From a virus, in IMG/VR virus record IMGVR_UViG_3300045988_183236, positions 35,677-99,676 of that record: a stretch of DNA of 64,000 bases, one strand, 5' to 3'. The notes under the pieces were generated by a model. It was not told the DNA's origin. It saw nothing but the letters and a program-made list of their open reading frames with translations, and ran no database searches. Shown in pieces: positions 7,795 to 58,911 of this stretch; position 1 is the first letter of the stretch; every line of letters starts with the position of its first letter. The translations under genes were made by a program, and so were the position numbers.

Positions 7795-8334
7795 TTAGGC
7801 TTCATTGAGCCATTTCTGAGTGATATCCTTGATTTGGTTCTGGAATTTCGGGTCCGGCAATGCTTTTCTTTCTGTCCAAATTGAATTTCGGACGATTGGG
7901 TAATCGTACACGACGCCGTCAACGATATAGGGCCAAAGAACAACTTCACCACCCACAAGCCAAAGTTTCTGGATTTTGACGGGTTTCTCGTATCTTGTGA
8001 GCCAGCATTCACTGGTCACGACAGAATCCGCCACATATTTCTGTGTTTCTTCCTCGGTCAAGAGATTCGGGTCTTCGTCCTTGATGTTGTACATTCGGAC
8101 AATGAACGGTAACGGCATGTCCTTGGAGTATTTTTTGTTCCGACGCAGCTCAGCGAGCAGGAATTTTGAGACAAAATGCGCAATGCCGATGCTGGTCAGG
8201 CAGTCGTCAAGGGTATGCCCAAGACAAATTCTTGGGATTTCCTGGTCCTCCCCTTTCATCCGATTCGTTGGTATCTGCGGAACGACATCGTCCGGCAGGC
8301 ATCCGGTGTCTGCCATGATATGATAAAGAATCAT
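7795..8334 (-). CDS. hypothetical protein
   Basis: 179 aa ORF. Confidence 0.45.
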   Translation of the reverse strand: MILYHIMADTGCLPDDVVPQIPTNRMKGEDQEIPRICLGHTLDDCLTSIGIAHFVSKFLLAELRRNKKYSKDMPLPFIVRMYNIKDEDPNLLTEEETQKYVADSVVTSECWLTRYEKPVKIQKLWLVGGEVVLWPYIVDGVVYDYPIVRNSIWTERKALPDPKFQNQIKDITQKWLNEA

Positions 8335-8468
8335 TGATGTTTCCTCCTGAAATAGAAAAAATAGCAGGCCCTCAAGAATCGAGAGTCTGCTTTGTTTGCA
8401 CGATTTATTCTATCGTGCAGTAGATGTTTTGCTTGGTCCGCACACGCAGACAGCCCAACAGGCATCGT

Positions 8469-8936
8469 TCAGAACGTCTTGTCGTCAGGAACTAGCAGAT
8501 ACATCCAGGACTGTGGTGCTCGCTTAACGCCGAGCTCTCGCAGCGACATATCCATAGATTGGACATCAGAAACGTTCCAGCAATAAAGAGTGCCGGACTT
8601 ATTGCCGTATGCAATCAGCTCATTTGCGGTAAGGCAGCTGTCCTTCACGAATTGAGCGGTCTTTGCGGTCACTTCCGTACCAATAGCATATGCCGGAAGC
8701 TCACGCAGGCAATCGAGTGTATTGATGTCACGGCAAACAAATGCGGCAGTCACTTTTCCAGCACCACCGTTAGCTTTGGTTTCGTAGCAAAATACTACAA
8801 AAGGATAGCTAATTTCCCACGGCATAGTTTTTCGGACCTCAATAGTCTTTTCTCCGCTCAGAATTTTTTCAAGCCATTGCTTCTTGATGCTGAGAAGAAC
8901 GGCTTTATTCGAGTTAATTTCAAGGGCTTTATTCAT
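8469..8936 (-). CDS. ASCH domain protein
   Basis: LSIKKQWLEKILSGEKTIEVRKT matches ASCH/PUA-like N-terminal signature. Confidence 0.6.
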   Translation of the reverse strand: MNKALEINSNKAVLLSIKKQWLEKILSGEKTIEVRKTMPWEISYPFVVFCYETKANGGAGKVTAAFVCRDINTLDCLRELPAYAIGTEVTAKTAQFVKDSCLTANELIAYGNKSGTLYCWNVSDVQSMDMSLRELGVKRAPQSWMYLLVPDDKTF

Positions 8937-9239
8937 ATGTCAACAACCTCCACCTGAAGGAGGGGCTTAAAATCCCGCAGGATTCCAATAATTCTCACTC
9001 AATGGATTTTTACAGCACGGTTCCGTCCGTGCGACCAAGTATCTATGAGCTTTCACCGCTGTTGCGGGCGGCATAGCGGGAGTGAGGAAATTGGATTTAT
9101 GCGGGATATAATCCCAACAATCCAACATTACGTATGTTTATAGCGGCATTGTGGTCGCGGTTATGTGTTGTACCGCAGCCACTGCATGTCCAACTTCTGT
9201 CTGCCAGTGTAAGGTCATCTTTTATAAGACCACCATTTC

Positions 9240-9791
9240 TTAAACTATGTATGCATCACAATGCTGCTTTTTCCAGTACAGGTCATCGATGATATCCGAA
9301 AGGTACTGGTTTTGCTTTAAGACGAAAAACGATACCGGATTATGCTTTACGATGAAACCAAGTCCCGTTCGTTCATCGTAAATATCTTTCATGTGGTTCA
9401 GCCACTTTGAAAAATTTTTGATATGGGAATTATCTCGAAGTATAAACCTGCCGAACCATTGCTGCTTAATGATTTGTCTTTCCTTTGCTCGCTCTTTGGA
9501 TTCTTGTTCATTCCATACGATATTGTCAGGTTCGACAATTACATAGGGAATCTTCTGCCTATCCATTTCGTCTATGACGGATTCCGTTTGGCAAACGAAG
9601 ATAAAATCATATTTTCCTGATTTTGCCTCTTTCATGAAGCTATTTATGTATTCTTTTTCCCATCCGGCAGTTTTTTCATAAGTAGAACTATCACTATCCC
9701 GCATTGAATAGCCATATTTGTTTTGGTGATTCGCGAGCCATGTTTTTCCGCAGCCCGCAAATACGCTTACGACCATTGTTCGTCTCATCAA
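9240..9791 (-). CDS. P-loop NTPase/kinase-like protein
   Basis: Walker A-like VFAGCGKTW near N-terminus; 183 aa. Confidence 0.5.
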
Positions 9792-9885
9792 TCAGGGCAA
9801 TTCCTTTCTTTGAAAATAAAATATATTTTGTATGGCAACAAAGACCATAGCGACTATGAAAGCACCACTACGAATAGAGGCGCTC

Positions 9886-10163
9886 TGGCAGCTAAAAAGA
9901 AGCTGCTCACTCCTCCGAAGAGGGTAAAAATCCTTCCCCAAGGTCATAAACGGTTTAATACAGCCACACCTGTCGGCTTTGCCTCAGCTTTACGTGATGT
10001 GTTGTCTTAGAGCGTGCAGTTAGGATTAACGCCACACGGTAACTATCTATTCGCTTATAACGGAGTGCTCGAAGCACTTATGGTAGTCAACATATCCTTA
10101 CGGACACTTCTAAAGTGCAGACTTGCCGAAGCAAGCCTGCGACTTTAGTCGTGGGTTATTGAC
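9886..10163 (-). ncRNA. IscB-type omega-RNA-like element, second copy without adjacent nuclease gene
   Basis: About 93% identical over 278 nt to the region immediately upstream of iscB (12017-12294); ends with the same CCCACGAC-UAAA-GUCGCGGG-type hairpin; contains a GCAGGCUUGC-UUCG-GCAAGUCUGC hairpin. Confidence 0.5.
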
Positions 10164-10177
10164 TTGTTTTTGGAGCG

Positions 10178-10429
10178 TCACCATTTATGGAACGGGTTCA
10201 GAAGTCCGGGACGGTATTCGTTATCGACATACATCTTGATGTCGTTATCGTCCAGGGCATCCAAAATGTTCATCCAGCATTCCGCTTCGACGTGCATCTC
10301 GCCGTCCATTTTCAAGGCCCTGTCGCACTGAACTAAGTCTGCGCGAAAAGAATTCACATAGAAGCAATCTTTTGCGGCAGCCGCGAACCTGGTAAAACTG
10401 TTCTTGGTATTTGTGGTCATAGTATTCAT
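10178..10429 (-). CDS. hypothetical protein
   Basis: Likely start MNTMTTN at 10429 (GAAAGGATG RBS); own promoter 10574-10601 and terminator 10470-10508 upstream. Confidence 0.4.
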   Translation of the reverse strand: MNTMTTNTKNSFTRFAAAAKDCFYVNSFRADLVQCDRALKMDGEMHVEAECWMNILDALDDNDIKMYVDNEYRPGLLNPFHKW

Positions 10430-10469
10430 CCTTTCTGAAATATTTTTGTTTCTAATCAATACATACAAA

Positions 10470-10508
10470 AAAAGAAGCAGGCCCTCAAAAGAGAGTCTGC
10501 TTACTTGT
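10470..10508 (-). terminator. rho-independent terminator
   Basis: RC: AAGCAGACUCUCUUUUGAGGGCCUGCUU followed by CUUUUUUUG. Confidence 0.55.
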
Positions 10509-10573
10509 GCATGACAGATTGTTAATTTAATGTTCAATTAGGAGGTAAGTGATGGTATCTGTTATGCAATTAT

Positions 10574-10601
10574 TATTTTAGGCGGTTCGCACATTTGTGC
10601 A
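10574..10601 (-). promoter_or_regulatory. TGTGCGAAC-class promoter
   Basis: RC TTGCAC-aaa-TGTGCGAAC-cgcc-TAAAAT. Confidence 0.5.
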
Positions 10602-10712
10602 AGTGGCTTTTTTAGCTTCGTTTGTTTTTTGGCATCGCGTTGGTCCAGCCCTTAGATTTGTGTTTTTCAGGGGCATCATCAATCATGGCAAGGATACCCG
10701 CGACTTCAGTCG
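10597..10712 (-). pseudogene. 3' fragment of gene disrupted by IscB element (paralog of 45355-46242 family)
   Basis: Minus-frame translation ...AGILAMIDDAPEKHKSKGWTNAMPKNKRS* resembles ...FGIVLVGPAKGSHDDFTFLTLPAWAKEN of the 295-aa paralog. Confidence 0.4.
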
Positions 10713-10729
10713 TGGGAGGATTTGCCCAT

Positions 10730-11992
10730 TCACTTCCTTTCGATTAAATAGTTTGTTGCAGGCTCTAATAGTCGCAGTTTTTTAAATGAAATGCTATTCG
10801 TAATGGTTGTACCATCGAATTTTCTTAAAGCGAAATATCCCGATGACCTGCGTCCTGAAATAAAACATTCCTGCTCGTTATAGAGCACCTTGTCCCAGAG
10901 GCGAAATCCTTTAACGATATAGGGCGCTTGATTTGCTTTTCGAATTCCACCTTTCAAGATTTTCGCTTTATGGATTTGCCGATTGTGGTGTCGAATTGCC
11001 TTCGTGCGGTAACAAACACTGCAAGGTTTAGCTAGTGGATGCTTGCTAATACAACGGGCATCGTTAACATGGCTTTTCTTGATGTCGTTTTGTTCACGTA
11101 ACAACTTGGTTATATAGCCATATGTGTTTTGTACTGGAATATTAAGTTCGTTGCGTAGGCGTGTCAGTAGTGTGTTACGCATGATACCCATAAAAGCCGC
11201 ATCGCGAAGCGTTTTACCACGTTTTTTGCCGTCAAGTGTTATCTTCCCTTTATGGAGGTTGTTGTGGCAAGTGGTACACAAAGTGATAAGGTTGCTTGGT
11301 GCATTACCGCCCACCTTACGGCTTTCAAAGTGATGTACATGCAGCTTGACGGTTTTCTTTGCGGTGGTATGAGCACCACAGCATTGGCATGTATAGTTAT
11401 CACGCTTCAAAACATACTGGCGAACATTGTATTCGTCGTACATCTCACCGAGTTGGTAGTCGGTTCCTACCGGCAGAGGCTTTCCGGCAAGCATTGCTTT
11501 TAAGCGTTGCGTGTCAAACTCTGCAGTTTCTACTCTTACAAGAGTGATAGGCAAAATTCGACAGATGCGCTTGATAACAGTAATGTGCTCTTGGATTTTT
11601 ACTTCTACCGAAGGTGCAAGCCAACCCTTATGTTTGCTGTGTACACGGTTATTGAATCTTGGCGCACGGTAACGAGTTTTGCGATTTCGCCTTGAACGGC
11701 GGTTCTGTCTGCGCGTAGATAGCAATTCTACTACATCGTTGCGAGGAGTGAACTCCTCACTGTAGAGTTCGCGCTTCTCTGTAGATGCAGACAAGCCAAC
11801 ATGCTTGCTGCCCGCATCTACACCAAGAGTGATAGGCTGTTTGTATCCCGCACTTCCATGCAGGAGTTTGATGGTGAACGGCGTGCGTTTTACAACGCAA
11901 GCTTTTTGCTGTTTCAACAAGATGCGAGCCTTTCCGGGTGAGCAAGGCATCAAGGGCTCGCCGCGCTTGTTAAGTACATACGCATATTGCAT
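10730..11992 (-). CDS. iscB: IscB RNA-guided endonuclease (PLMP, RuvC-I, HNH, RuvC-III)
   Basis: N-terminal ...RGEPLMPCSPGKARILL (PLMP domain), LGVDAGSKHVG (RuvC-I), CQCCGAHTTAKKTVKLHVHHFESRKVGGNAPSNLITLCTTCHNNLH (HNH), HVNDARCISK (RuvC-III); 420 aa. Confidence 0.8.
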   Translation of the reverse strand: MQYAYVLNKRGEPLMPCSPGKARILLKQQKACVVKRTPFTIKLLHGSAGYKQPITLGVDAGSKHVGLSASTEKRELYSEEFTPRNDVVELLSTRRQNRRSRRNRKTRYRAPRFNNRVHSKHKGWLAPSVEVKIQEHITVIKRICRILPITLVRVETAEFDTQRLKAMLAGKPLPVGTDYQLGEMYDEYNVRQYVLKRDNYTCQCCGAHTTAKKTVKLHVHHFESRKVGGNAPSNLITLCTTCHNNLHKGKITLDGKKRGKTLRDAAFMGIMRNTLLTRLRNELNIPVQNTYGYITKLLREQNDIKKSHVNDARCISKHPLAKPCSVCYRTKAIRHHNRQIHKAKILKGGIRKANQAPYIVKGFRLWDKVLYNEQECFISGRRSSGYFALRKFDGTTITNSISFKKLRLLEPATNYLIERK

Positions 11993-12294
11993 GATGCTAT
12001 GCTCCTTTCGATAAAATTGCAGCTAAAAGGAAGCTGCTCACTCCTCCGAAGAGGGTAAAAATCCTTCCCCAAGGTCATAAGCGGTTTGATACAACCACAC
12101 CTGTCGGCTTTGCCTCAGCTTTACGTGATGTGTTGTCTTAGAGCGTGCAGTTAGGATTAACGCCGCACGGTAACTATCTATTCGCTTATAACGGAGTGCT
12201 CGAAGCACTTAGGGTAGTCAACATATCCTTTCGGACACTTCTAAAGCGTAGACTCGCTGATGCAAGCCCGCGACTTTAGTCGTGGGTTATTGAC
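11993..12294 (-). ncRNA. omega-RNA scaffold of the IscB element
   Basis: Non-coding ~300 nt immediately 5' of iscB start on same strand, the IscB-specific arrangement; conserved copy at 9886-10163; guide would be RC of the flank beyond 12295. Confidence 0.55.
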
Positions 12295-12295
12295 G

Positions 12296-12636
12296 ACAAA
12301 ATCCCTATATGGCAGCCGCATCATAATATCGGAATAAATCGGTGCGTCCTCAGTCTCTGCCAATGTTCTGAGAAATTCCGAAGCGAAATTGTACACGGTT
12401 TTTGCTGCACGCCAATAGTTTGCGACGTATGCCATCGAAAATTGTGCGGCAAGTTCCCCATCTATCGCATCGGCGGCAATCTGACCGTTTTGGATAAGGC
12501 GGTGCCCAAGCGGAATAAATTCTTTCACATAATAGTCATAGCCCTTATCCAGCAGCTTGTTGGCCCCAGAATTCAAAAGAAACTGACTGCTCTGCTCGGC
12601 ATACCAAAGAGCGCTGTTCACAATTATATTGTCCAC
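12296..12636 (-). pseudogene. 5' portion of gene disrupted by IscB element insertion
   Basis: ORF 12241-12636 N-terminal 113 aa homologous to residues ~60-115 of the 45355-46242 protein (AKTVYNF..LPYRDF vs TKTVYDF..LPIRDF); last 18 codons are IS-derived. Confidence 0.55.
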
Positions 12637-12645
12637 AATGATACC

Positions 12646-12873
12646 TCACTGCCAATACAGTTTTATTGTTCCGTCAGCAAAAAGAATCTGGCTGTACTCC
12701 TCGCCGTCAAGGACAATGCAGCGGTCCTCTCCGTGCTTGTGAGCGCCGGTACAATACACAGTTTTATTATCGATAGCCGGAATGGACGGTGCTTTTGCCA
12801 AAACCGACTGACCGTGCATGGCGCAGATGTCTAAGAAAGAAATGATGTGGTCGCCCACCCTGGAAGCCTCCAA
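12646..12873 (-). CDS. hypothetical protein
   Basis: 75 aa ORF. Confidence 0.4.
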   Translation of the reverse strand: MEASRVGDHIISFLDICAMHGQSVLAKAPSIPAIDNKTVYCTGAHKHGEDRCIVLDGEEYSQILFADGTIKLYWQ

Positions 12874-12878
12874 TCTAA

Positions 12879-13550
12879 TTACAGTGCTCTAATTTGGAAA
12901 GAACCTTCAGCACGCGGCAATGGCTCGTCTGTGACTTTCAGAACGGAGCTATCTCGTTTCTCTGTCGCATATCGAATGGTTTTAAGAATCTCGTATGCCA
13001 GCTTGCTGTTGTAGGCAAGTCCTGAATTTGAAATACCAAAGTTCCCATTCCAACCAAGCCTTATCTTTTTGAGCTGTGGAATCAGAAGGTCACGGGCTTC
13101 GAGGACCCCCACCCCATTCCAGCGTGCATCATGGTACGCTTGAAGGTGCTGCTCATCGTTACCAGAAATATCAAGTGCTTCATAGATGACGCCAAATTGA
13201 CCCATCAAAACACGAGAGTATGTATCCAGCGCATCGGCAACGGCTTTCCAGGAAGAGACATCTAAGCTAACACTGTATTTATATGGAGCGTCCTTTCCCG
13301 GCAGTTCCCGTGCATGATGCAGTATATCTTCCAGAATGTCGCTGCACTTGTTAGATAAACTTTTGACAGGTGCCGTTACGTTTACAGCTGTCAGAGCAGC
13401 GCAAGCACTTGCAATGTCTGCTTCGCTTGCTCCATAAGCCTCTCCAACCTCTTTGCAGATAGAGGAAAAATCGTTGCTATAAAACGTTATCATGATGGCA
13501 AGAGCGTGCAGGATGAAAGAGTACTGCTTGCTCGTGAAATCAATGTACAT
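12879..13550 (-). CDS. hypothetical protein
   Basis: 223 aa ORF; promoter motif 13583-13610 upstream. Confidence 0.5.
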   Translation of the reverse strand: MYIDFTSKQYSFILHALAIMITFYSNDFSSICKEVGEAYGASEADIASACAALTAVNVTAPVKSLSNKCSDILEDILHHARELPGKDAPYKYSVSLDVSSWKAVADALDTYSRVLMGQFGVIYEALDISGNDEQHLQAYHDARWNGVGVLEARDLLIPQLKKIRLGWNGNFGISNSGLAYNSKLAYEILKTIRYATEKRDSSVLKVTDEPLPRAEGSFQIRAL

Positions 13551-13582
13551 ACGGCAAAAATCCTTTCATTTTCTACACTTTA

Positions 13583-13610
13583 ATTATACCGCGATTCGCA
13601 ATTTCTCACA
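13583..13610 (-). promoter_or_regulatory. TTGCGAAT-class promoter
   Basis: RC TTGTGA-gaaa-TTGCGAAT-cgcg-GTATAAT. Confidence 0.45.
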
Positions 13611-13839
13611 ACGGAAAGCGTTAAATGGTAACAGTTTATACACATTCTTTTGCAATTGACATTCTCCCCCGCCTAAGCCCAACGGCTATAGACGGGGTAC
13701 TCTGCCTTCAAATTTCATAGATGAATCAGTGGCAAATGAAGGCACTTTTGCTTTCTGGACAATTTTGTTGCTTTGCTGTATGATTAAAGTACAACAATTA
13801 GGGCAATACAAAAATCGATAACGACGAGGTACTGATAAG

Positions 13840-14211
13840 ATGGACGCGACAATGCAGACGGTTCTCCGGCTCCATGAGCAAGGTATACCTAGAAGAACCA
13901 TTGCCAAACGTGCAGGCATCTCATTGCAGAAAGTGCGCAAAATACTGATTACAGCCGGGGCATGGTCAGATGAAACATCAGAAAAAATCGGGAAGCTGCG
14001 TGCGAACGGTATGTCAGTTCCTGAAATCGCAGAAGAATTGGGTGTAAAAACCAATACTGTTTGGAGCTATTTGCCATACAGCAAAGGCATGTATAATCAA
14101 GAATATCCGACCATTAACGCCATTCGAGTCCGAAATTCGAAGCGAAAAGCAAAAGAAAAAGCCCTCACCTGCACGGATACCGCACAGAATGAGGGCAGTG
14201 GCGCTTGCTGA
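13840..14211 (+). CDS. tandem-HTH DNA-binding protein (two resolvase/sigma-r4-like HTH units)
   Basis: IPRRTIAKRAGISLQKVRKIL and MSVPEIAEELGVKTNTVWSYL repeats; same repeat family as 23696-25827 and 47511-48050. Confidence 0.55.
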   Translation: MDATMQTVLRLHEQGIPRRTIAKRAGISLQKVRKILITAGAWSDETSEKIGKLRANGMSVPEIAEELGVKTNTVWSYLPYSKGMYNQEYPTINAIRVRNSKRKAKEKALTCTDTAQNEGSGAC

Positions 14212-14286
14212 AGGATTCGAACCTTCGGACAGTCTCCCATCGTCGGTTTTCTGGACCGATTTCATCAACCACTCGAACAAGCAAGC
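14199..14286 (-). tRNA. tRNA, Ser-type (long variable arm) with non-canonical anticodon loop CCAGAAA (C33; anticodon AGA?)
   Basis: RC gives GCTTGCT acceptor / AGCAAGC-G-CCA, T-arm GAAGG-TTCGAAT-CCTTC, anticodon arm TCGGT-CCAGAAA-ACCGA; 88 nt. Confidence 0.55.
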
Positions 14287-14289
14287 AGA

Positions 14290-14379
14290 TGGCGCAGAGG
14301 GTGAGATTCGAACTCACATGCCGCGATTTCCGCGACGGCAGCTTAGCAAGCTGCTGCCCTACCGTTAGGCGACCTCTGC
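14290..14379 (-). tRNA. tRNA-Ser(GCT)
   Basis: GCAGAGG...GCAGC-TTGCTAA-GCTGC...long variable arm...GTGAG-TTCGAAT-CTCAC-CCTCTGC-G-CCA; 90 nt. Confidence 0.7.
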
Positions 14380-14410
14380 ATAATGCACCTTTTTGACATA
14401 GGTGCTTGTA

Positions 14411-14484
14411 TGACCCCTGGCAGACTCGAACTGCCGACTCCACATTGAGAGTGTGGTGACTTAGGCCAACTTGTCGAAGGGGCC
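14411..14484 (-). tRNA. tRNA-Glu(CTC) (CCA not encoded)
   Basis: Acceptor GGCCCCT/AGGGGTC, anticodon arm CCACA-CTCTCAA-TGTGG, T-arm GGCAG-TTCGAGT-CTGCC. Confidence 0.55.
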
Positions 14485-14487
14485 TTA

Positions 14488-14574
14488 TGGTGTGCCGGGC
14501 TGGATTCGAACCAGCGAACCGAAACGGAGCGGTTTTACAGACCGCCTGCTTTAACCTCTTGCATACCGACACAT
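14488..14574 (-). tRNA. tRNA-Tyr(GTA)
   Basis: GTGTCGG acceptor, GCGGT-CTGTAAA-ACCGC, long variable arm, TTCGAAT T-loop, CCA. Confidence 0.7.
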
Positions 14575-14575
14575 A

Positions 14576-14651
14576 TGGTGCTCCCGGCTGGAATCGAACC
14601 AGCGACACGCGGTTCTTCAGACCGCTGCTCTACCAACTGAGCTACAGAAGC
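14576..14651 (-). tRNA. tRNA-Phe(GAA)
   Basis: TAGCTCAGTTGGTAGAGC D-arm, GCGGT-CTGAAGA-ACCGC, TTCGATT T-loop, CCA. Confidence 0.7.
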
Positions 14652-14652
14652 A

Positions 14653-14732
14653 TGGTGACCCGTGTGGGTTTCGAACCCACAATAACCTCCGCCTTGAAAG
14701 GGCGGCAACTCTACCAATTCGTCCAACGGGCC
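14653..14732 (-). tRNA. tRNA-Glu(TTC) (80 nt, long D/variable region)
   Basis: GGCCCGT acceptor, CCGCC-CTTTCAA-GGCGG, GTGGG-TTCGAAA-CCCAC, CCA. Confidence 0.55.
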
Positions 14733-14761
14733 ATATATAGCCGCAATCCTGCGGCGAGGGT

Positions 14762-14983
14762 TTATGCGATGACAAGGATGTCATCTATCTTGGTATCCAG
14801 CATTGCTGCTAATATCACAAGGTTATCGATGGTGGGAAGCGCTGTTCCGGCTTGCCATTTAGCAACCGCCTGCGGAGACACACCGAGCATGTCTGCCACA
14901 TCCTTCACCTTGATGCCTGCTGCCTTTCGCAGGGCCTTGATATTGGCACCTGTCTGCTGGATATCAATAGTAGGAACGTTCAT
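14762..14983 (-). CDS. XRE-family HTH transcriptional regulator
   Basis: ALRKAAGIKVKDVADMLGVSPQAVAKWQAGTALPTIDNLVILAAML = Cro/C1-type HTH; embedded in tRNA array. Confidence 0.65.
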   Translation of the reverse strand: MNVPTIDIQQTGANIKALRKAAGIKVKDVADMLGVSPQAVAKWQAGTALPTIDNLVILAAMLDTKIDDILVIA

Positions 14984-15240
14984 TTTTCTTGCTGCCTTTC
15001 TGTATTGCAGGCAACAAAAAAGCTGCCTGCCGAAATCTCGACAAGCAGCTATGACATGCAGTTATCGCTTAGAAGACGCACCGCATCTGTACATGGTCTG
15101 TTTTTGCCTGTCGAGGAGTATGAGAAATAAAACTGCGTTCAAAGGACATGAACTCAGAATATTCGTAACTATACTCATACGGCATGACATTAACAGTGTT
15201 GCACAGCATTTTGGGGTATCTCCTTTCGTTTCGTTCTGAT

Positions 15241-15272
15241 ATTATTATACCATGTTTTCGCAAGTTCGCAAT
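15241..15272 (-). promoter_or_regulatory. promoter, TGCGAA-class variant (TTGCGA-N16-TATAAT)
   Basis: RC ...TTGCGAACTTGCGAAAACATGGTATAAT upstream of XRE gene. Confidence 0.35.
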
Positions 15273-15316
15273 CAACTTGTGGTTTAGTTTTTTGGTCTGT
15301 ATACTCTCCAAAACAA

Positions 15317-15350
15317 AAAGCCGCCTCTTATGTGAGGACGGCTTTTCTTA
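15317..15350. terminator. bidirectional rho-independent terminator at end of tRNA block
   Basis: AGCCGCCTC-TTATGT-GAGGACGGCT flanked by A-run and T-run. Confidence 0.55.
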
Positions 15351-15353
15351 TTG

Positions 15354-15429
15354 TGGCAGGGGTAACACGACTCGAACATGCAACAAGCGGTTTTGGAGAC
15401 CGCTGCTCTACCACTTGAGCTACACCCCT
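15354..15429 (-). tRNA. tRNA-Trp(CCA)
   Basis: AGGGGTG-TA-GCTCAAGTGGTAGAGC-A-GCGGT-CTCCAAA-ACCGC...TTCGAGT...G-CCA. Confidence 0.7.
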
Positions 15430-15437
15430 ATATAGAT

Positions 15438-15511
15438 ACTCCAGCTGGGAGTCGAACCCAGAGTAAAACGGGACTTAAAGCCGCCGCGTTTGCCAGTTTC
15501 GCCACTGGAGC
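15438..15511 (-). tRNA. aberrant tRNA-like gene / pseudo-tRNA (good acceptor and T-arm, no canonical anticodon stem; loop region contains UUUAAG)
   Basis: GCTCCAG...CTGGG-TTCGACT-CCCAG-CTGGAGT-A; anticodon region GGCGGCTTTAAGTCCCG cannot form 5-bp stem with 7-nt loop. Confidence 0.4.
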
Positions 15512-15514
15512 ATA

Positions 15515-15590
15515 TGGCGGGTTGTACAGGGTTTGAACCTGCGGCCCACGGATTAACGGTCCGTTGCTCTACCAGCTGAGCTAACAACCC
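15515..15590 (-). tRNA. tRNA-Asn(GTT) with C33 (loop CCGTTAA)
   Basis: GGGTTGT-TA-GCTCAGCTGGTAGAGC-A-ACGGA-CCGTTAA-TCCGT...GCAGG-TTCAAAC-CCTGT...G-CCA. Confidence 0.65.
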
Positions 15591-15619
15591 ATAAATGGCA
15601 GTTGTTGTACTGCCGGACA

Positions 15620-15697
15620 TGGTACTCCCCGAGGGATTCGAACCCTCAAAACGGTGCGGTTTGAGCGCACTGTGTCTGCCAATTTCACCAGAGGAGC
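15620..15697 (-). tRNA. tRNA-Leu(CAA) with Leu-type D-arm but short variable arm (78 nt)
   Basis: GCTCCTC-TG-GTGAAATTGGCAGACAC-A-GTGCG-CTCAAAC-CGCAC-CGTTTT-GAGGG-TTCGAAT-CCCTC-GGGGAGT-A-CCA. Confidence 0.55.
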
Positions 15698-15700
15698 TTA

Positions 15701-15776
15701 TGGCGGGCGTAGCAGGATTTGAACCTGCGACAAACGGATTAACGGTCCGCCGCTCTGCCTACTGAGCTATACACCC
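15701..15776 (-). tRNA. tRNA-Asn(GTT) with C33 (loop CCGTTAA), second copy
   Basis: GGGTGTA-TA-GCTCAGTAGGCAGAGC-G-GCGGA-CCGTTAA-TCCGT...TTCAAAT...G-CCA. Confidence 0.65.
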
Positions 15777-15807
15777 ACAAAAGTGGCAGATAATGCTCTG
15801 CCGGGCA

Positions 15808-15883
15808 TGGTGCGCTCGCGGGAAATCGAATCCCGAACACCCCGATTAAAAGTCGGGTACTCTACCGATTGAGTTACGAGCAC
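15808..15883 (-). tRNA. tRNA-Lys(TTT)
   Basis: GTGCTCG-TA-ACTCAATCGGTAGAGT-A-CCCGA-CTTTTAA-TCGGG...TTCGATT...A-CCA. Confidence 0.7.
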
Positions 15884-15963
15884 TTGTCGCGCATCTTCCG
15901 TGCCTTGCTTATGGGAACACAGCTTCGAAGAATCTCACTTCCGATGCGCATGAAAGTGAGCGT

Positions 15964-16037
15964 TGGCCGAGAATGGTCGAGTCGAACAACCGTTGTCAGG
16001 GTCAAAGCCTGATGCCTTACCGTTTGGCGAATCCTCG
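15964..16037 (-). tRNA. tRNA-Gln(TTG)
   Basis: CGAGGAT acceptor/ATTCTCG-G-CCA, TCAGG-CTTTGAC-CCTGA, GGTTG-TTCGACT-CGACC. Confidence 0.6.
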
Positions 16038-16430
16038 AATATACATTATGTATAATAGCATACACTTTAATAAGCCTGGCTGGAATTCACTCCAGCGGCA
16101 TTAGAGTGACCTGATTCTGATTTTCTGCATCAAAAAAGCACCCATCAGGCGTTGTGCGTCTGACAGGTGCTCATATCGTGCAGAGTATGGAAAACAACCG
16201 ATACTTGGATGATTTTATTCAACCATCACTGCACTATGATTTGCACAAACAGACAACACAAAACAGCCGAAGAGATTCCAATTGCTCCACAGCTTTTGCA
16301 ATTTATTCTGTTTGTTCATCATAGCAGCAAACATCGTGCAATTTTCCTTTCATCAAATTCAGTGTCTATATTATACAATGTGTAAAATACAAAGTCAAGG
16401 CTTTTCATAAAAATAATAGCAGGCCCACGC

Positions 16431-17180
16431 TTATTGTTTGTCTGGCTTCCAAGCCACAATCCGCACTATCACATTCGAGAGCAGTACGTCCTCATACGAG
16501 CACAGTACGCCTAAAGCGTTAGCCATTCTGGACTCGTAGTCAGCCAAAGCCAGGTCGATGGGCGCGTTAATTTCAGCAGAACCATCCGTTGTTCCCAGAA
16601 CGGGAGGCCTCGTGCTTTTCCTTTTGACGCTCCAGTTGTTTGCCAGCAAGTAGTCGTACAGTGCATACGGATTAACTGCGCTTATACCTTCTCTCGATGA
16701 CAGTATCGTATATGCCCGCTTGTATTTTCTGGTTCTTTCCAAGTCTCTTTTAGTTGGAGTGTGAGGGAGCCTGGTTAAGTCCATGTTGCTGCGCAGGTCC
16801 GAGAGCTTCACTTTGACAGCAATCGAATTTTGCTGAATATACCAAAGATATTCAGCATACGATATACCCTTGCTATGGGTCAACGCACTCACAGCGTCAG
16901 CAACCTCTTTTGGAAACCCCGTTCTGATGTCTTCTATTGTGACGGACGTATCTTCGACCGTATCATGCAGAAATGCCACAGCCTCGGCTATTGGGTCACC
17001 TTTTACGCCTTCTGCTACAACCGTAACGTGCGCTTTGAAGTAGTCCTGCCCAGCCTTGTCTTTTTGCCCGGCATGAGCCTTAACAGCCCAAGCTCTGGCT
17101 TTGGCAACCATCTCAATGTCAGACTGCTTCCACTCTAAAGGAATCGTAATGTTCACTTGTACGCTTGATTTTTTTGCCAA
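16431..17180 (-). CDS. RelA/SpoT-type HD-domain hydrolase (small alarmone hydrolase-like, (p)ppGpp pyrophosphohydrolase family)
   Basis: N-terminal AHAGQKDKAGQDYFKAHV and AVAFLHDTVEDT motifs = RelA/SpoT HD hydrolase signature; 249 aa, no synthetase domain. Confidence 0.7.
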   Translation of the reverse strand: MAKKSSVQVNITIPLEWKQSDIEMVAKARAWAVKAHAGQKDKAGQDYFKAHVTVVAEGVKGDPIAEAVAFLHDTVEDTSVTIEDIRTGFPKEVADAVSALTHSKGISYAEYLWYIQQNSIAVKVKLSDLRSNMDLTRLPHTPTKRDLERTRKYKRAYTILSSREGISAVNPYALYDYLLANNWSVKRKSTRPPVLGTTDGSAEINAPIDLALADYESRMANALGVLCSYEDVLLSNVIVRIVAWKPDKQ

Positions 17181-17359
17181 CTATATCACCTCATACATAT
17201 ATTATGTATGTATTCTGTGCCGTCAGTCAAACTGCTCAACGAATATTTTACAAAAAATCAAAAAGAGCCATTCATCCCACAGGCAAGCCTGCAGGTTTTC
17301 TGGCTCTCAATTATAACCCTATTCGATATAGCAATCTGTTGCCTTGTATTGCTCACAAA

Positions 17360-17386
17360 AACAAAAAAGCCGGGAAGTCCCGGCAA
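17360..17386 (-). terminator. rho-independent terminator after tRNA-Ser(TGA)
   Basis: RC GCCGGGACUUCCCGGC + UUUUUUGUUUUUG. Confidence 0.55.
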
Positions 17387-17389
17387 ACA

Positions 17390-17478
17390 TGGCGGCCAGA
17401 GTGGGATTCGAACCCACGGACGTTTGCGGCGTCGCTGGTTTTCAAGACCAGTTCCTTAAACCACTCGGACATCTGACC
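17390..17478 (-). tRNA. tRNA-Ser(TGA)
   Basis: GGTCAGA...CTGGT-CTTGAAA-ACCAG, long variable arm, GTGGG-TTCGAAT-CCCAC, G-CCA; 89 nt. Confidence 0.7.
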
Positions 17479-17561
17479 ACAAAAGGATGGGGCGGGACCG
17501 AAATCCCGCCCCACAGCAAGGAGAAAAAACTATCGATTACCGTTAGTTAGAGGATGGCAAA

Positions 17562-18695
17562 TTAGTGGATGCCCAGGGAAGCGGCATAAGCAGCTTCACG
17601 AGCGGCAACCTGTGCCTGCAGAGCAGCGATGGAAGCGGCATAAGCGGCTTCACGCTTTTCAGCAGCAGCCTGAGCTTCAGAGGTAGAAGCGTACTGGGGT
17701 TCATTGCCGGCCAGAGTGCCAGCATAACCCTTGACGCCATCAGCGCCCTTGACAGTCAGGACTTCGTGACCACAATGGTCACAGACGTAAACGTTACCTT
17801 TGCGGGTCCAGTTGTGATAGCCACAGCTGGTGCAGACGGTGTACTCATTGCCCCAGGTGCCATTGGCAATAGCGGCGGCAATTTCACCGTGCTCAGAGAC
17901 TTCAACGTTCTTGTGAGGAGCGGTCGGAGTAGTGGTGGTAGTACCGTTGCCCTTGTTGGAGCCGGTAGAAGTGTTGTCCTTACCGGTGTTGTCCTTATCG
18001 GGGGCCACTACGTCGCCCTTGTCATCGGGAGTGGTGGTGCCGCTGTCGCCGGTATTGTCGCCCTTGTTGTCGCCCTTATCGTCGGGGTTGGTGACATCGC
18101 CCTTGTCATCGCCCTTGTTGTCATCCTTGCCGTCATCGGGAGTGGATGCAGAAGTGGCTTTCAGGGTCAGGACGTTGTCGTGGATGTCGTCGCCCAGGTA
18201 GTAGAACAGGCGGTCATGGTTCAGGCTCTTGCTGGATGCGGTGTAAGTATCACCGGAATCCGTGGTCCAGGCTTCAACGCTCTGACCATCAACGCTGCCG
18301 GGGAAAGTGGCAGTGTCAGTTTCGGTCAGCACAGTGTTGCCGTCAATCTGATAGTTGATGGTGATGGAACGCGGATTACCTTCGGCCGCATAGCAGGAAG
18401 TGATGCCGTCAGCGGTGAACCACTGGTCAACTGCATCGTACGGCAGAGTGTCGCCGGGATAGTAGTTGTAGGTGTAGCCGCCGTGGCCCTGCAGGGTAAT
18501 CCAGTAACCGTAGTCATACTGGCTTGCCGGGAACGTCATAGAGCCGCCCGGAGCCAGGTCCTGGGAAGAACCGTTGCTGAAAGAGAAATGATAGGTGTCG
18601 CCGGTGGCTGCGAATGCTGCGACAGGCAGACAAGTTGCCATCATACCGGCTGCTGCAATCCCTGCGATTGCTTTGATGATTTTCTGATTACTCAT
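17562..18695 (-). CDS. secreted protein with Asp/Lys-rich (PDDKGD) repeats and C-terminal Cys4 zinc-ribbon-like motif
   Basis: Start MSNQKIIK (AAAGGAG RBS), signal peptide ...LPVAAFAATG; low-complexity DDKGD repeats; CTSCGYHNW...CDHCGH. Confidence 0.55.
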   Translation of the reverse strand: MSNQKIIKAIAGIAAAGMMATCLPVAAFAATGDTYHFSFSNGSSQDLAPGGSMTFPASQYDYGYWITLQGHGGYTYNYYPGDTLPYDAVDQWFTADGITSCYAAEGNPRSITINYQIDGNTVLTETDTATFPGSVDGQSVEAWTTDSGDTYTASSKSLNHDRLFYYLGDDIHDNVLTLKATSASTPDDGKDDNKGDDKGDVTNPDDKGDNKGDNTGDSGTTTPDDKGDVVAPDKDNTGKDNTSTGSNKGNGTTTTTPTAPHKNVEVSEHGEIAAAIANGTWGNEYTVCTSCGYHNWTRKGNVYVCDHCGHEVLTVKGADGVKGYAGTLAGNEPQYASTSEAQAAAEKREAAYAASIAALQAQVAAREAAYAASLGIH

Positions 18696-18795
18696 GCTGT
18701 GTACTCCTTTGCTTTTTTGATTTTTTCGTCTATTTATCTGCATTTATTCAGATACCGGTTTGAAAGAAATCAGCCGCAGCTTTGCTGCGTTGCCC

Positions 18796-18855
18796 ACCAT
18801 CTGCCACGTGGAGGCTTTCTCATGGATGGTTGACGAAGCAGATATGTGCTTCGCC
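18796..18855. other. conserved covarying hairpin motif, instance 1 (core GCCACGTGGAGGC) plus second hairpin
   Basis: ACCATC-tGCCACGTGGAGGCtttctcat-GATGGT then CGAAGCA-gatatg-TGCTTCG; in 5' leader of gene 17562-18695. Confidence 0.4.
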
Positions 18856-19054
18856 AGTGTCGCAACCGTCTTCGCCACTCGACACAATTTCGGTTTGAAT
18901 TTATCCCCGTAAAATCGCATGTCCATGCTGCGCGGAGAGGATAAAATTCTTCGTGGTATGGTTTCGGAGTTCCGCGCCTGATTGGCCGTACTACACGCAA
19001 TGCAGTACAATACCCCAGATACCTTTGGCGAAAGGAAGCGAAAGGGTGTCTGGA

Positions 19055-19130
19055 TGGAGAAGGGAGATGGCCTCGAACCATCGATACCCTGCTTTGCGGC
19101 AGGTGCTTTATCCAGCTAAGCTATCCCTCC
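19055..19130 (-). tRNA. tRNA-Cys(GCA)-like with non-canonical anticodon loop (6-nt CGCAAA or 8-nt CCGCAAAG; no U33)
   Basis: GGAGGGA-TA-GCTT...AAGC-A-CCTGC-CGCAAA-GCAGG-GTATC-GATGG-TTCGAGG-CCATC-TCCCTTC-T-CCA; 76 nt. Confidence 0.5.
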
Positions 19131-19160
19131 ATGATGGCGGGTCAAGCCCGCCAAATAGCG

Positions 19161-19553
19161 TTACGCAAACTGGAAGTCGCCGTACTGAGTCACGGCGCGT
19201 TCCAGGCGCAGAGGAATGGTTTTTGTGCTCTTCTGAGTGATGTCTTCGCGTGCTACCTGAGCTTCACTCACGCCAGCCGCCTGCAGGACTTCATACAGAT
19301 TGGAAGGACCAGTACCAGCATAACCGCAAGTCAAGCCATTAACCTGAAGTGTAAAGCCGTGCAGATGCGGTGCCAAGCCGGGCACGAAATCAAGTTCGAC
19401 AATGACCTCATCGCTCTTATCGTTCACACGATTGACCGAGATGGCGCGGACGTTCTGATTGCCAAGCATCCCAATCAGCTTTTTGGCTGCTGCAGCGGTT
19501 TCAATGGTAGTTGTACCTTCGACATTGATAATTGCCTGTTCCATAAGTTTCAT
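19161..19553 (-). CDS. hypothetical protein
   Basis: 130 aa ORF between tRNA genes. Confidence 0.45.
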   Translation of the reverse strand: MKLMEQAIINVEGTTTIETAAAAKKLIGMLGNQNVRAISVNRVNDKSDEVIVELDFVPGLAPHLHGFTLQVNGLTCGYAGTGPSNLYEVLQAAGVSEAQVAREDITQKSTKTIPLRLERAVTQYGDFQFA

Positions 19554-19582
19554 CTCCTTTCTATTATCGCTTCATTGGGTAA

Positions 19583-19658
19583 TGGGGCTTGATGGCAGGT
19601 TCGAACTGCCGACCTGCGCGTTACGAATGCGCTGCTCTACCAACTGAGCTAATCGAGC
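19583..19658 (-). tRNA. tRNA-Thr(CGT)
   Basis: GCTCGAT-TA-GCTCAGTTGGTAGAGC-A-GCGCA-TTCGTAA-CGCGC...GGCAG-TTCGAAC-CTGCC-ATCAAGC-C-CCA. Confidence 0.65.
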
Positions 19659-19930
19659 ACGATAGGGTGTTTTATGCTGGTCACCCCTTGAGCGAGAAGC
19701 CAACTCGCATCCAGCACCATTCGATAGCTGCATCGATGGATTCTGCTTTATACCCTTTCCGCTGTTTTCCGGTCTTATTCGCGACTAACACCGGGACTTT
19801 CGAATACTTTCAGGCACAGCACCTGTTTGTCTATTATTTTTGAGGCTGTCTCATCGACATTTGGACAGCGGACCACAAGTGGACCATGCTCACCAAGTTT
19901 AACGTCGTGGCGTACGGTGACTGCGACGTG

Positions 19931-20005
19931 TGGAGCAAGTAGCGGGGGTCGAACCCGCGTCTCCGCCTTGGAGGGGCGGAGTATTAGCCGTTATACGATA
20001 CCTGC
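19931..20005 (-). tRNA. tRNA-Gly(TCC) with C33 (loop CCTCCAA)
   Basis: GCAGGTA-TC-GTATAACGGCTAATAC-T-CCGCC-CCTCCAA-GGCGG...GCGGG-TTCGACC-CCCGC-TACTTGC-T-CCA. Confidence 0.6.
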
Positions 20006-20374
20006 ATAAAATTGCGGGTGAACCCTCACTTAGCCCCGCCATGACATCCGTTTAGTAGGTCGTCATCCCCGGATGTCATCTTCACACCACCTGACAATCT
20101 TGCGAACCTCATCGTTGACGATACGCGAGAATCCAAGAAAGCGCTTGGGTGTTGGTCAACTTCAAATTTTGAGCCCTGTCGTTGATTCCCTGTCAAATCG
20201 GGTTAACGGTTGTCGTTGGGCTGTGTGTGAGACTGCGGCGAAACTTACCAGTTGCCGTGCAGCAATCTCGCCTTTACGGCTGTGTCGCGTCTGGATGCGC
20301 CCCGACTTGACGGGGATGCTCGTACGTTTGCATGCTTCTAAGACATTCGTCAGCAGCCGCAAGAGCCGCTGTCC

Positions 20375-20408
20375 GCCACCCGCCACGAGGAGGCCGCCTT
20401 AATGGGTG
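20375..20408. other. conserved hairpin motif, instance 4 (core GCCACGAGGAGGC)
   Basis: CCACCC-GCCACGAGGAGGCcgccttaat-GGGTGG; flanked by direct repeat ctgtccgcca. Confidence 0.35.
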
Positions 20409-20478
20409 GCATGCTGTCCGCCAGATGTTGTGTATAGCATCGTATCATGTGATTTCGATACATCCAACGGATAGCGTC

Positions 20479-20554
20479 TGGAGCTGGAAATCGGACTTGA
20501 ACCGATGACCGACTGATTACAAATCAGTTGCTCTACCAGCTGAGCTAAACCAGC
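20479..20554 (-). tRNA. tRNA-Thr(TGT) (two mismatches at base of acceptor stem)
   Basis: GCTGGTT-TA-GCTCAGCTGGTAGAGC-A-ACTGA-TTTGTAA-TCAGT...ATCGG-TTCAAGT-CCGAT-TTCCAGC-T-CCA. Confidence 0.55.
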
Positions 20555-45354: not shown

Positions 45355-46242
45355 TCAGTAAATAAACTTGCATTCCCGGCGTTCCCGGCCATTGCCGCAC
45401 CAGTAATGCCGCCAGCGGGGAGTTTTGCCTTCCCCATTCTTTTTGTATTCTTTGGCCGCATTCTCACCAACGGTATACGGTTTAATGTTGATGCGTTGTG
45501 CTTTTCCCTGGAATACAAAAACCGGGCGGTCACGCTTCTTGGAAGTTTCCAAGCGGACATCAGGGTTCTTACTGGCAAGATAGTAGGCACACAGGATTGC
45601 CAGGCGAACATAAGGTGTGCCGCCGTCAAAGACCGAAGGAACTGCTTCCATCACAGCCGGTACGCTGATACCATTTACCTGCCGCTGCCCGGCTGCCTTT
45701 TCCAGGTATTCTTTCGTGCTCCGAGTTGCTTCCGTCAAACTCTGGTTTTCTTTGGCCCAGGCAGGCAGAGTCAGGAACGTGAAATCATCATGGCTGCCTT
45801 TGGCCGGGCCGACAAGAACGATGCCGAAAGCAGTGGTCTTCTCTTTCTCTTCGAATTCCACATGCACGAACATACCGTTGTAGTCGTAGCTGTCATACAC
45901 CGGGATAAAGAAATCACGAATCGGAAGCCGCTGCAGGATATCCTGATGAATCGCCATGTCATCCGTATCCATAAGAATTTTCTGGAACTCGTAGTCAAAA
46001 TCATAGACCGTCTTCGTCTGGTTCCAGCAGCCGATGGTGAAGCAGGGGAAAATCTGTGCAGCAAGGACACGCTCGAAACCCGGCGTGTTCATTTTCTGCG
46101 CTGCCGTCACACAGCAAAGCGTTGAAGATTTGTTGTACTCTTGCAGAGTCTTCCCACACGGGTCACTGAACCCAAAATGGTTACGGGTCTGTTTGGTAAC
46201 GGCATTCGCCGTCAATGCGATTCTCAGCTGTTCCTTGGTCAT
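45355..46242 (-). CDS. hypothetical protein (intact paralog of IS-disrupted gene at 10597-12636)
   Basis: 295 aa; homology to 12296-12636 fragment. Confidence 0.5.
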   Translation of the reverse strand: MTKEQLRIALTANAVTKQTRNHFGFSDPCGKTLQEYNKSSTLCCVTAAQKMNTPGFERVLAAQIFPCFTIGCWNQTKTVYDFDYEFQKILMDTDDMAIHQDILQRLPIRDFFIPVYDSYDYNGMFVHVEFEEKEKTTAFGIVLVGPAKGSHDDFTFLTLPAWAKENQSLTEATRSTKEYLEKAAGQRQVNGISVPAVMEAVPSVFDGGTPYVRLAILCAYYLASKNPDVRLETSKKRDRPVFVFQGKAQRINIKPYTVGENAAKEYKKNGEGKTPRWRHYWCGNGRERRECKFIY

Positions 46243-53704: not shown

Positions 53705-55348
53705 TTAATCTTTGGCCTTTTTGTCTTTCATGATAGCCTTCTCTTCTTCGGTCACATCCGGTCGAAAATGAGTGACTTCCTCACCGTTGAGATTCTTCTC
53801 ATGAATCAGATAGCCGCCTTCTACGCGTTCCATTGCCTTGGCACCTCCTTTCTCTTTGTTATTCTCAGGCTGTTCACATTGAGTCATAATGTTGATGTTG
53901 CGGTCTGTCTTTGCCTGGATGCTGTTGGCACGGACAATTTCGCCCATGTCAATGCCGGTCGCTTCTTTCACCGTCTGCATGGTTTGAGCCATCAGGATAG
54001 GAACGTTCCCGGAAACGCCGGATACGCCGGAGGCATCACCGCCAATGATAGAAACCTTATCAATGCTGGACAAAGGCTGAGCCACGCTCTTGGCAATGTC
54101 AGGAAGAACCTTGATGAGCATTTCAGCCACAGCCGCATCGTTATACTGCTTATATGCCTCTGCTTTCTGTTTCATGGCTTCCGCTTCAGCCAAGCCTTTC
54201 TGACGAATCGCTTCAGCTTCTGCCTTACCGACAAGCTCAATGCCTTCTGCTTCCTGCTGCTTAGAGAACTTCTGTGCCTCAGCTGCACGTTCCGCCTCAT
54301 ATTTCTTGGCTTCTGCCTCTTTCTGGCGGCGGTACAGGTCAGCATCTGCCTGTTTGCGGACTTCCGCATCCAGTTTGCGTTGCTGGACCTCGGCTTCCTG
54401 TGCGGCAAGGTCTACCATTTTCTTCTGCTTGGCGATTTCAGCATCCGCTTCCGCTTCTTTGATTTCTTTGGCGCGGAGATTCATCTGAATCTGACCGGCA
54501 GCATCTGCGTCAGCCGCAGCTTTATCAGCTTCAGCTTTCAGCTTTGCCTTGGCGAGCTGCAATTCATTGTTGCGTTTTGCAATCGCAGTCTGCGCTTCAA
54601 CTTCCTTGGCATTTGCAGCCATCTCAGCATCGGCCTTCGCGCAGGCTACATCACGGGCAGCCTGAGCACGGGCAATTTCAGCCTGTTTCTTTACGAGCTC
54701 TTCCTGTTCGATGCCGATAGCTTCGATAACGCCGTGATTGTGGCCCTGAACATCCACTGCATCCCTGATGTCCTGGACATTAAAAGTCACGACCTCAAGT
54801 CCCATCTTAGCAAGGTCGGGGCGAGCATTCTCGATAACGCTCACAGCCATCTGCTTGCGGTTCGTCAGAATTTGGTCAACGGTCATATCGGAGACAATCT
54901 CTCGCAAATTGCCCTGCAGAACGTCATTGACTTTGTCATTGATGCCCTGCTCGTTCATGCCGAGAAAGTTCGAGATGGCTGCCTGCTGGCGGGACATGAT
55001 GTACGCCTTGGCGTCTTTCAGACCGGATGCCTTCACTTCTTCATCCAGAACGGTAGAGTTTTCGCTGTAGACTTGAATCGTGACAACAGAGTCAATCCAG
55101 AGACTTACGCCGTTCTTCGTCTTAACACCTGTTTCAGGAGTCTTGACATCGATTTTCAAAAGGCGCATATTTAGTCGGTCAGCCCGTTGAAGAACGGGCA
55201 GAACAAATGTACCCTTTCCGCAAACCACTTTAGGCTTAGACAGGCCAAAGCCAGTTACAACGATAGCCTCCGTGGGCGGAGCTTTCTTGTAGCAGAGAAA
55301 TCCAAAGAGAATAATCAGGGCTGCTACAATTCCAATCACGTATACCAT
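53705..55348 (-). CDS. flotillin-like SPFH/Band-7 domain protein
   Basis: N-terminal TM + SPFH fold motifs (VVTGFGLSKPKVV...GTFVLPVLQR...) followed by long Ala/Glu/Gln-rich coiled coil typical of FloA/YqiK. Confidence 0.7.
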   Translation of the reverse strand: MVYVIGIVAALIILFGFLCYKKAPPTEAIVVTGFGLSKPKVVCGKGTFVLPVLQRADRLNMRLLKIDVKTPETGVKTKNGVSLWIDSVVTIQVYSENSTVLDEEVKASGLKDAKAYIMSRQQAAISNFLGMNEQGINDKVNDVLQGNLREIVSDMTVDQILTNRKQMAVSVIENARPDLAKMGLEVVTFNVQDIRDAVDVQGHNHGVIEAIGIEQEELVKKQAEIARAQAARDVACAKADAEMAANAKEVEAQTAIAKRNNELQLAKAKLKAEADKAAADADAAGQIQMNLRAKEIKEAEADAEIAKQKKMVDLAAQEAEVQQRKLDAEVRKQADADLYRRQKEAEAKKYEAERAAEAQKFSKQQEAEGIELVGKAEAEAIRQKGLAEAEAMKQKAEAYKQYNDAAVAEMLIKVLPDIAKSVAQPLSSIDKVSIIGGDASGVSGVSGNVPILMAQTMQTVKEATGIDMGEIVRANSIQAKTDRNINIMTQCEQPENNKEKGGAKAMERVEGGYLIHEKNLNGEEVTHFRPDVTEEEKAIMKDKKAKD

Positions 55349-58880: not shown

Positions 58881-58911
58881 AGTCGCGGGTCTCCTTGCCC
58901 TGATTTATGAA

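Follow-up and report, generated by a model that had tools for sequence, protein, structure and literature searches.

An IscB/omegaRNA element of the predicted IS605 type, with decayed copies, in a gut phage genome

The stretch of DNA described here (the window) comprises 64,000 nt, positions 35,677-99,676 of IMG/VR record IMGVR_UViG_3300045988_183236, and carries on its minus strand an element of 1615 bp (10680-12294) that contains an omegaRNA and an iscB gene only. Judged by its anatomy, it is a non-autonomous insertion sequence (IS) of the IS200/IS605 family lying in a gut phage genome, and we consider this reading as a whole, including selfish maintenance and spread by predicted RNA-guided homing as the most likely function, very likely (a probability of about 0.88). 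It belongs to a known class, the IS605-family IscB elements, the ancestor type of Cas9, and is not a new kind of system. The window itself is gut phage DNA: IMG/VR viral contigs, IMGVR_UViG_3300045988_182201 among them, match it at 97-99% identity, and many open reading frames (ORFs) in the window match PHROG families. A megablast search of positions 8000-14200 against the GenBank phages collected in INPHARED returned no match.

The iscB gene (10730-11992, minus strand) encodes 420 aa, with a PLMP domain, a RuvC domain split by an HNH insert, and a C-terminal region expected to interact with the target-adjacent motif (TAM). An initial annotation, made from the letters alone, had read the order PLMP, RuvC-I, HNH, and RuvC-III in this ORF, and all of these motifs are indeed present: PLMP at residue 13, GVDAGS with D59, then E155, the CQCC, HVHH, and CHNNLH blocks of the HNH domain, and HVNDAR with H308 and D311. 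The catalytic residues are D59, E155, H308, and D311 in RuvC and H220, H221, N234, H243, and H247 in HNH. Profile searches agree, with Pfam matches to RRXRR (4e-59) and HNH (3.5e-7) and a score of 331 bits, against a cutoff of 175, for the NCBIfam equivalog guided_IscB ("RNA-guided endonuclease IscB"); solved IscB structures, OgeuIscB among them, are matched with E values of 1e-33 to 3e-36. The domain plan of the class (an N-terminal PLMP/RRXRR domain, a RuvC domain interrupted by HNH, and no REC lobe) is found complete within the 420 aa, and on sequence grounds the ORF is an IscB.

Relatives of this protein at about 70% identity or more number 216 in IMG/VR viral contigs, several of which carry two copies. 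The iscB ORF is intact in 75 of the 79 loci that we aligned with the window. Among 60 unique family proteins, D59, E155, H221, N234, H243, H247, H308, and D311 are invariant, and H220 is kept in 59, with a tyrosine (H220Y) in the remaining one. The ratio of nonsynonymous to synonymous substitution rates (dN/dS) is 0.05-0.07 when the gene is compared with relatives at dS 0.4-2.9, and a value of about 0.07 indicates strong purifying selection.

On the same strand, immediately 5' of iscB, lies a non-coding block of 302 nt (11993-12294), where the initial annotation had expected the omegaRNA. The Rfam HEARO model (RF02033), a family equated with the IscB omegaRNA (PMC10055086), matches 12055-12294 on the minus strand over its full length (model positions 1-211) with 84.6 bits (gathering score 83) and an E value of 7e-17. 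This match was missed when the whole window was first scanned at the gathering threshold and was recovered with laxer filters. A terminator-like hairpin (12019-12037) closes the RNA, giving a scaffold, omegaRNA-1, of 12019-12294 (minus), the 5' end of which is the element boundary. In an alignment of 21 family members, 78 base pairs are predicted, and 18 of these show compensatory double changes. Directly 5' of the scaffold, the 16 nt ATATAGGGATTTTGTC (12295-12310, minus) form the putative guide flank; this length is assumed from published IscB systems, and the same nucleotides supply the final codons of a truncated phage gene, gene X.

The ends of the element were mapped on the 79 aligned loci. 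In unrelated contexts the homology always begins at window position 12294 and stops at 10676, or at 10687-10691 in the more distant subfamilies. The omegaRNA-side end, which is the transposon right end (RE) if one follows the assignment in PMC10055086, always opens with GTCAATAA plus a hairpin, here the imperfect palindrome CCCACGACTAAAGTCGCGGG at 12267-12286 (minus), 8 nt from the boundary. At the other end (the transposon left end, LE; 10680-10716, minus), the hairpin CCCACGACTGAAGTCGCGGG (10697-10716) is followed by TATCCTTGCCATGATTG; across the family this end reads hairpin-T(A/C)TCCTTGCC-N7-ATGA, with A as the usual next base and the flanks diverging thereafter. Since about 40 independent insertion contexts in related viral contigs could be compared, the ends can be placed at 12294 and 10680. 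The initial annotation had noticed the similar hairpins near both ends and had put the element at 10690 or 10713 to 12295; an element does lie there, but its limits are corrected to 10680-12294, with ATGA at 10676-10679 adjoining. The two hairpins are in direct orientation and conserved across the family, and there are no terminal inverted repeats.

The tetranucleotide ATGA at 10676-10679 (minus) is conserved, abuts the element, and is not duplicated; the family consensus is ATGAA. There are five clean pairs of full-element occupied and empty loci (L029/L006, L035/L006, L037/L071, L062/L033, and L053/L029, where L-numbers such as L006 or L080 are labels of related viral contigs or loci). In all five, and in one pair involving a 49-nt relic, the empty site has a single, undivided ATGA, and so no target duplication took place and ATGA belongs to the target. 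The 33 unique 3' flanks, collected with a search motif that itself requires ATGA, mostly continue with A; independently of that search, in nearly all empty sites ATGA immediately follows the 5' flank. The reverse complement of ATGAA is TTCAT, which experiments have established as the TAM of GstIscB, oriented 5' of the transposon LE (PMC10055086). From these comparisons with element-free alleles, by which the initial annotation had proposed to define the exact ends and the TAM, we infer computationally that the TAM of this IscB is ATGAA.

The position of these junctions relative to phage genes deserves a remark. At 24 of the 33 unique 3' junctions of L001-L079, an ORF of 50 codons or more starts with the ATG(A) of the junction, compared with 36% when every ATGAA of that DNA is counted, and many 5' flanks of family elements end in a Shine-Dalgarno motif. 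Taken together, the elements tend to sit exactly between a ribosome binding site and a phage start codon. The window also has an empty site (flank plus ATGAAT, about 54564-54567, minus) at which contig L020 carries an IscB element of 98% identity.

The gene interrupted here is a phage gene, and the label "host gene" of the initial annotation should be read in that way, although its central claim, a genuine insertion into a gene, is borne out. The 5' fragment of gene X (12295-12636, minus; codons 1-114) belongs to phrog_6160, a family without assigned function, and an intact allele of 358 aa is found at L080:4001-5077. A search of viral contigs with the first 114 residues gave 80 loci; the site is occupied in 24 contigs and empty in at least 55, and one contig (L127) has a 49-nt one-hairpin remnant. 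An empty allele reads ...GATTTTGTC/ATGAATCT..., the slash marking the junction, that is, ...GATTTTGTC/ATGAAT.... The at least 55 empty alleles confirm, by comparison of sequences, the insertion into gene X at 12294/12295, after codon 114. In 14 of the empty alleles the guide is matched perfectly next to ATGAAT, and in about 40 there are mismatches; these were counted to ask whether empty alleles show escape from cleavage, and they follow phage lineage.

An intact paralog of gene X (295 aa) lies at 45355-46242 (minus) and aligns with full-length gene X across residues 62-334 at 33% identity. The initial annotation had reported homology to it on both sides of the element. On the 12296-12636 side this holds, since the 131-aa ORF 12241-12636 (minus) is 44% identical to the paralog over 54 aa, ending exactly at the 5' end of the omegaRNA; on the 10597-10712 side, a tblastn search of the window with the paralog as query gave no homology to gene X or the paralog downstream (3') of the element. 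What lies there (10612-10675, minus) is the remnant of another gene, gene Y, namely its last 20 codons and stop; intact gene Y has 178 aa (L080:5089-5625). This is why a search for empty sites built from the two flanks of the window itself gave no match. The intervening 1218 bp (L080:4349-5566), made up of codons 115-358 of gene X and the greater part of gene Y, are missing from the window. With gene Y as the 3' flank and these 1218 bp absent, removing the element (10713-12295 in the initial annotation) does not rebuild the gene, which counts against that part of the earlier claim only. No Pfam or NCBIfam model matched gene X, gene Y, the paralog, or a 119-aa ORF, and their PHROG matches were to families of no assigned function only.

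In other family members, 5' and 3' flanks have been exchanged: in L006, L053, and L059 three different 5' flanks are paired with a single 3' flank, and the reverse is seen in other pairs. This pattern suggests that element copies act as recombination points at which phage modules are reshuffled, and it makes recombination between element copies a plausible cause of the 1218-bp loss as well. In L127 the gene-X site holds just the 49-nt one-hairpin remnant (L127:4343-4391), with the same downstream deletion, from which it follows that the full element collapsed, through recombination of one hairpin with the other, once the deletion was already in place.

Two further copies in the window had escaped the initial annotation. 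The first is a solo omegaRNA, omegaRNA-2, of 379 nt (9785-10163, minus), which lacks iscB and the LE hairpin and is a deletion derivative of a second element. Its scaffold (9888-10163, minus) is 95% identical to 12019-12294 over 276 nt and retains every helix of the family fold; the HEARO match spans the full model with 71.1 bits, which is below the Rfam threshold, and was seen only when a short region was scanned. The terminal motif TTGCCCTGATTGATGA follows at 9785-9800, about 90 nt downstream of the scaffold, and the final ATG(A) of the copy (9788-9791) is the start of ORF 9240-9791. The guide-equivalent flank is GACGCTCCAAAAACAA (10164-10179, minus), and L087 has an empty allele with exactly this sequence and then ATGAAT. 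In L006 this site, with the same 16-nt flank, holds a complete element whose iscB is intact, and other contigs have either a stub of about 45 nt from the 5' end or the empty GACGCTCCAAAAACAA/ATGAAT. Full, solo, stub, and empty states at one site form a decay series, of which the solo omegaRNA-2 is one stage; it is retained in about 17 contigs. Elsewhere in the window neither guide-equivalent sequence has another match adjoining ATGA, and so the genome is not predicted to target itself.

The second copy is a one-hairpin relic of 49 nt (58862-58910, plus), in which the 8 nt of the RE (GTCAATAA) and a hairpin are fused to the LE tail TCTCCTTGCCCTGATTT and ATGA; the equivalent empty site is found in related contigs. 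Owing to the relic, the upstream ORF (57336-58880) is 6 codons longer. In its empty alleles, ATGA is a stop/start overlap, with TGA ending one gene and ATG opening the next.

No gene for a Y1 (HUH) transposase, TnpA, lies within the element, as the initial annotation had said, the 1615 bp being taken up by omegaRNA and iscB. None was found in the rest of the window either, by Pfam on the 41 ORFs of the right size or by tblastn with two TnpA sequences as queries. Such absence is the usual state, tnpA being found near iscB in about 1.5% of iscB elements (PMC10055086). Three related contigs (L014, L089, and L132) do carry a Y1_Tnp gene (2e-33) in an element with similar hairpins. In L014:400-2950, as in the other two, this IS200-type tnpA (532-933 in L014) is followed by a 578-aa ORF without a Pfam match and about 250 nt of non-coding DNA; the hairpins CCCACGGTTTCAACCGTGGG and CCCACGATTTCAATCGTGGG delimit the unit, which has tRNA genes around it. 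Possibly the unit is a divergent TnpB-like element, and it is a candidate for supplying the transposase in trans.

How might such an element persist? The steps of read-through guide, cut, and repair are borrowed from published IscB/TnpB work (PMC10055086; review PMC13565253). The omegaRNA scaffold begins at the RE, and transcripts arriving from the upstream phage gene would therefore carry about 16 nt of flank as a guide. The other end of the element abuts ATGA(A), so an element-free copy of the locus reads guide match and then ATGAA, the type of site that an IscB-omegaRNA with a 3' ATGAA TAM is expected to cut. The most likely function is thus selfish maintenance and spread: the targets of IscB-omegaRNA cleavage would be empty alleles, whether left by excision through a TnpA acting in trans or present in related phages that infect the same cell, and recombinational repair from the occupied copy would reinstall the element (homing). 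In a phage setting the element-free copy would most naturally be that of a co-infecting relative, a case of "non-restorative homing." In the history that we favor for this locus, the element entered gene X after codon 114, and the 3' flank was later replaced in this lineage with the loss of 1218 bp.

Several observations weigh against this reading and should be kept in mind. The deletion and the flanks are the same in every occupied gene-X allele, a pattern that would fit a single vertically inherited insertion as well as it fits homing; likewise, the 24 occupied alleles and the 14 empty alleles with a perfect match are compatible with homing and equally with one old vertical insertion. Pattern scans gave 0 matches both for a gene X that is intact except for a simple insertion and for the element at the gene-Y junction (5' of ATGATGCCCCTG); with neither deletion intermediate found, recombination is a plausible but not a demonstrated origin of the 1218-bp loss. 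A promoter scan upstream of omegaRNA-1 showed no signal beyond chance.

The strongest competitor, which we nevertheless regard as unlikely, is that transposition is no longer involved and that IscB and the two omegaRNAs are kept as a domesticated two-guide nuclease directed against related phages without the insertions (marker exclusion). The lack of tnpA in the window, the purifying selection on IscB, and the complete fold of a solo omegaRNA retained in about 17 contigs would all suit such a role, as would the fact that one iscB serves two putative guides, each matching a related-phage allele that adjoins ATGAAT. Yet the family occupies about 40 different sites with typical IS ends and must be, or recently have been, mobile; the series at the second site, from full element through solo omegaRNA and hairpin stub to empty, looks like erosion rather than design; and the contigs with the solo copy are 97-99% identical, so that retention carries little weight.

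A good deal less probable is a dead insertion that has no current nuclease activity and is passively carried by the phage. One could cite for it the missing transposase, the visible decay of the neighboring copies at 9785-10163 and 58862-58910, and the rearranged 3' flank, but the element itself does not look dead: the ORF is full length, its RuvC and HNH catalytic residues are all present and hardly vary among 60 unique homologs, dN/dS is as low as about 0.07, and the omegaRNA scores above the Rfam gathering threshold and shows compensatory changes. Least probable is that the locus is a small CRISPR system of the Cas9 type (type II-D-like), or else an HNH homing endonuclease that stands alone and is not carried by a transposon, for although HNH and RuvC domains are common to Cas9 and small Cas9 structures are matched weakly, the best matches are to IscB, the 420-aa protein has no REC lobe, repeat finding over 8000-14000 detected no CRISPR array next to the gene, the RNA upstream is a HEARO RNA instead of a tracrRNA/crRNA pair, and the IS ends are defined at many insertion sites. 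The Cas9-type assignment was rejected on the HEARO match, the guided_IscB match, and the IS ends seen in about 40 contexts.

The homing interpretation of the IscB element can be taken further, though here we are speculating and consider the extension unlikely to hold. The element might need no transposase at all and spread and persist by RNA-guided homing from phage to phage during co-infection, with the solo omegaRNA providing a second guide in trans and the copies, often exactly at start codons, serving as portable homology that reshuffles modules. If this were true, nature would here pair one IscB with two guides, in a manner that recalls a stage on the way to multiplexing of the CRISPR type.

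Among characterized systems, the closest in anatomy are the ISGst-type IS605-family IscB elements of Geobacillus stearothermophilus (Meers et al. 2023, PMC10055086), a likeness that does not rest on protein alignment. Both kinds are non-autonomous and contain HEARO/omegaRNA and iscB only; in both, the omegaRNA is bounded by the transposon RE, where the HEARO RNA is placed in that work, and LE and RE have similar subterminal hairpins. The TTCAT TAM 5' of the LE is, on the iscB strand, the ATGAA seen here. In both, tnpA is usually absent from the element, and protein-less mini derivatives, similar to palindrome-associated transposable elements (PATE-like), coexist with full elements. The ISGst-type elements reside in a bacterial chromosome, whereas the present one resides in phage genomes, in a window without TnpA.

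OgeuIscB-omegaRNA (PDB 7UTN, 7XHT, and 8CSZ) has the same domain order, its catalytic residues align with those found here (D in GxDxG, HH of HNH, and HxxD of RuvC-III), and its omegaRNA is likewise of the HEARO class. At 496 aa it is larger than the 420-aa protein, and the similarity is limited, with an E value of about 1e-33 over two stretches. The TAM of OgeuIscB differs from the ATGAA predicted for the present element.

A functional parallel is offered by SegF and I-TevI of the T-even phages (PMC13565253), which are also nuclease genes carried by phages, occupying a given locus in some relatives but not in others, and act, as is predicted here, on the allele without the element during co-infection. 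They recognize their targets through protein-DNA contacts, whereas the IscB element would use a flank-derived guide RNA and a short TAM, and has transposon ends in addition. The "intronless homing" and marker exclusion brought about by free-standing and intron-borne T-even homing endonucleases have been reviewed (PMC13565253). The same review treats "transposon non-restorative homing" as theoretical for homologous chromosomes, phages, and plasmids, and offers one plasmid experiment as best explained in this way. What the present case adds is a clean, well-bounded IscB-omegaRNA element in a phage population, with occupied, empty, solo-guide, and collapsed states that can be read in public contigs. 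It yields a predicted TAM, ATGAA, and guide-target pairs for a compact IscB of 420 aa, and provides a natural setting for asking whether homing between phages that share a cell is driven by OMEGA nucleases.

Among bacterial genomes, the closest homologs of this IscB occur in a Clostridiales metagenome-assembled genome (85% identity) and Owariibacterium komagatae (80%), with the remaining ones in Oscillospiraceae, Erysipelotrichaceae, and Lachnospiraceae; this distribution points to a Clostridia host for the phage.

Outside the element, an array of tRNA genes extends over 14199-20554 (minus), with 18 genes called by ARAGORN and 17 by Rfam; one ARAGORN call (19055-19130) is a tRNA-??? with an abnormal two-base anticodon loop assignment. 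Within this region there is a match to a hepatitis delta virus (HDV)-like ribozyme at 18763-18830 (minus; 40.7 bits, below threshold). Directly 5' of the tRNA-Thr gene (20479-20554), a second HDV-like ribozyme (RF02682; 20559-20639, minus) scores 50 bits, above threshold, an arrangement of ribozyme and tRNA that we take to resemble the published HDV-like ribozymes of gut phages.

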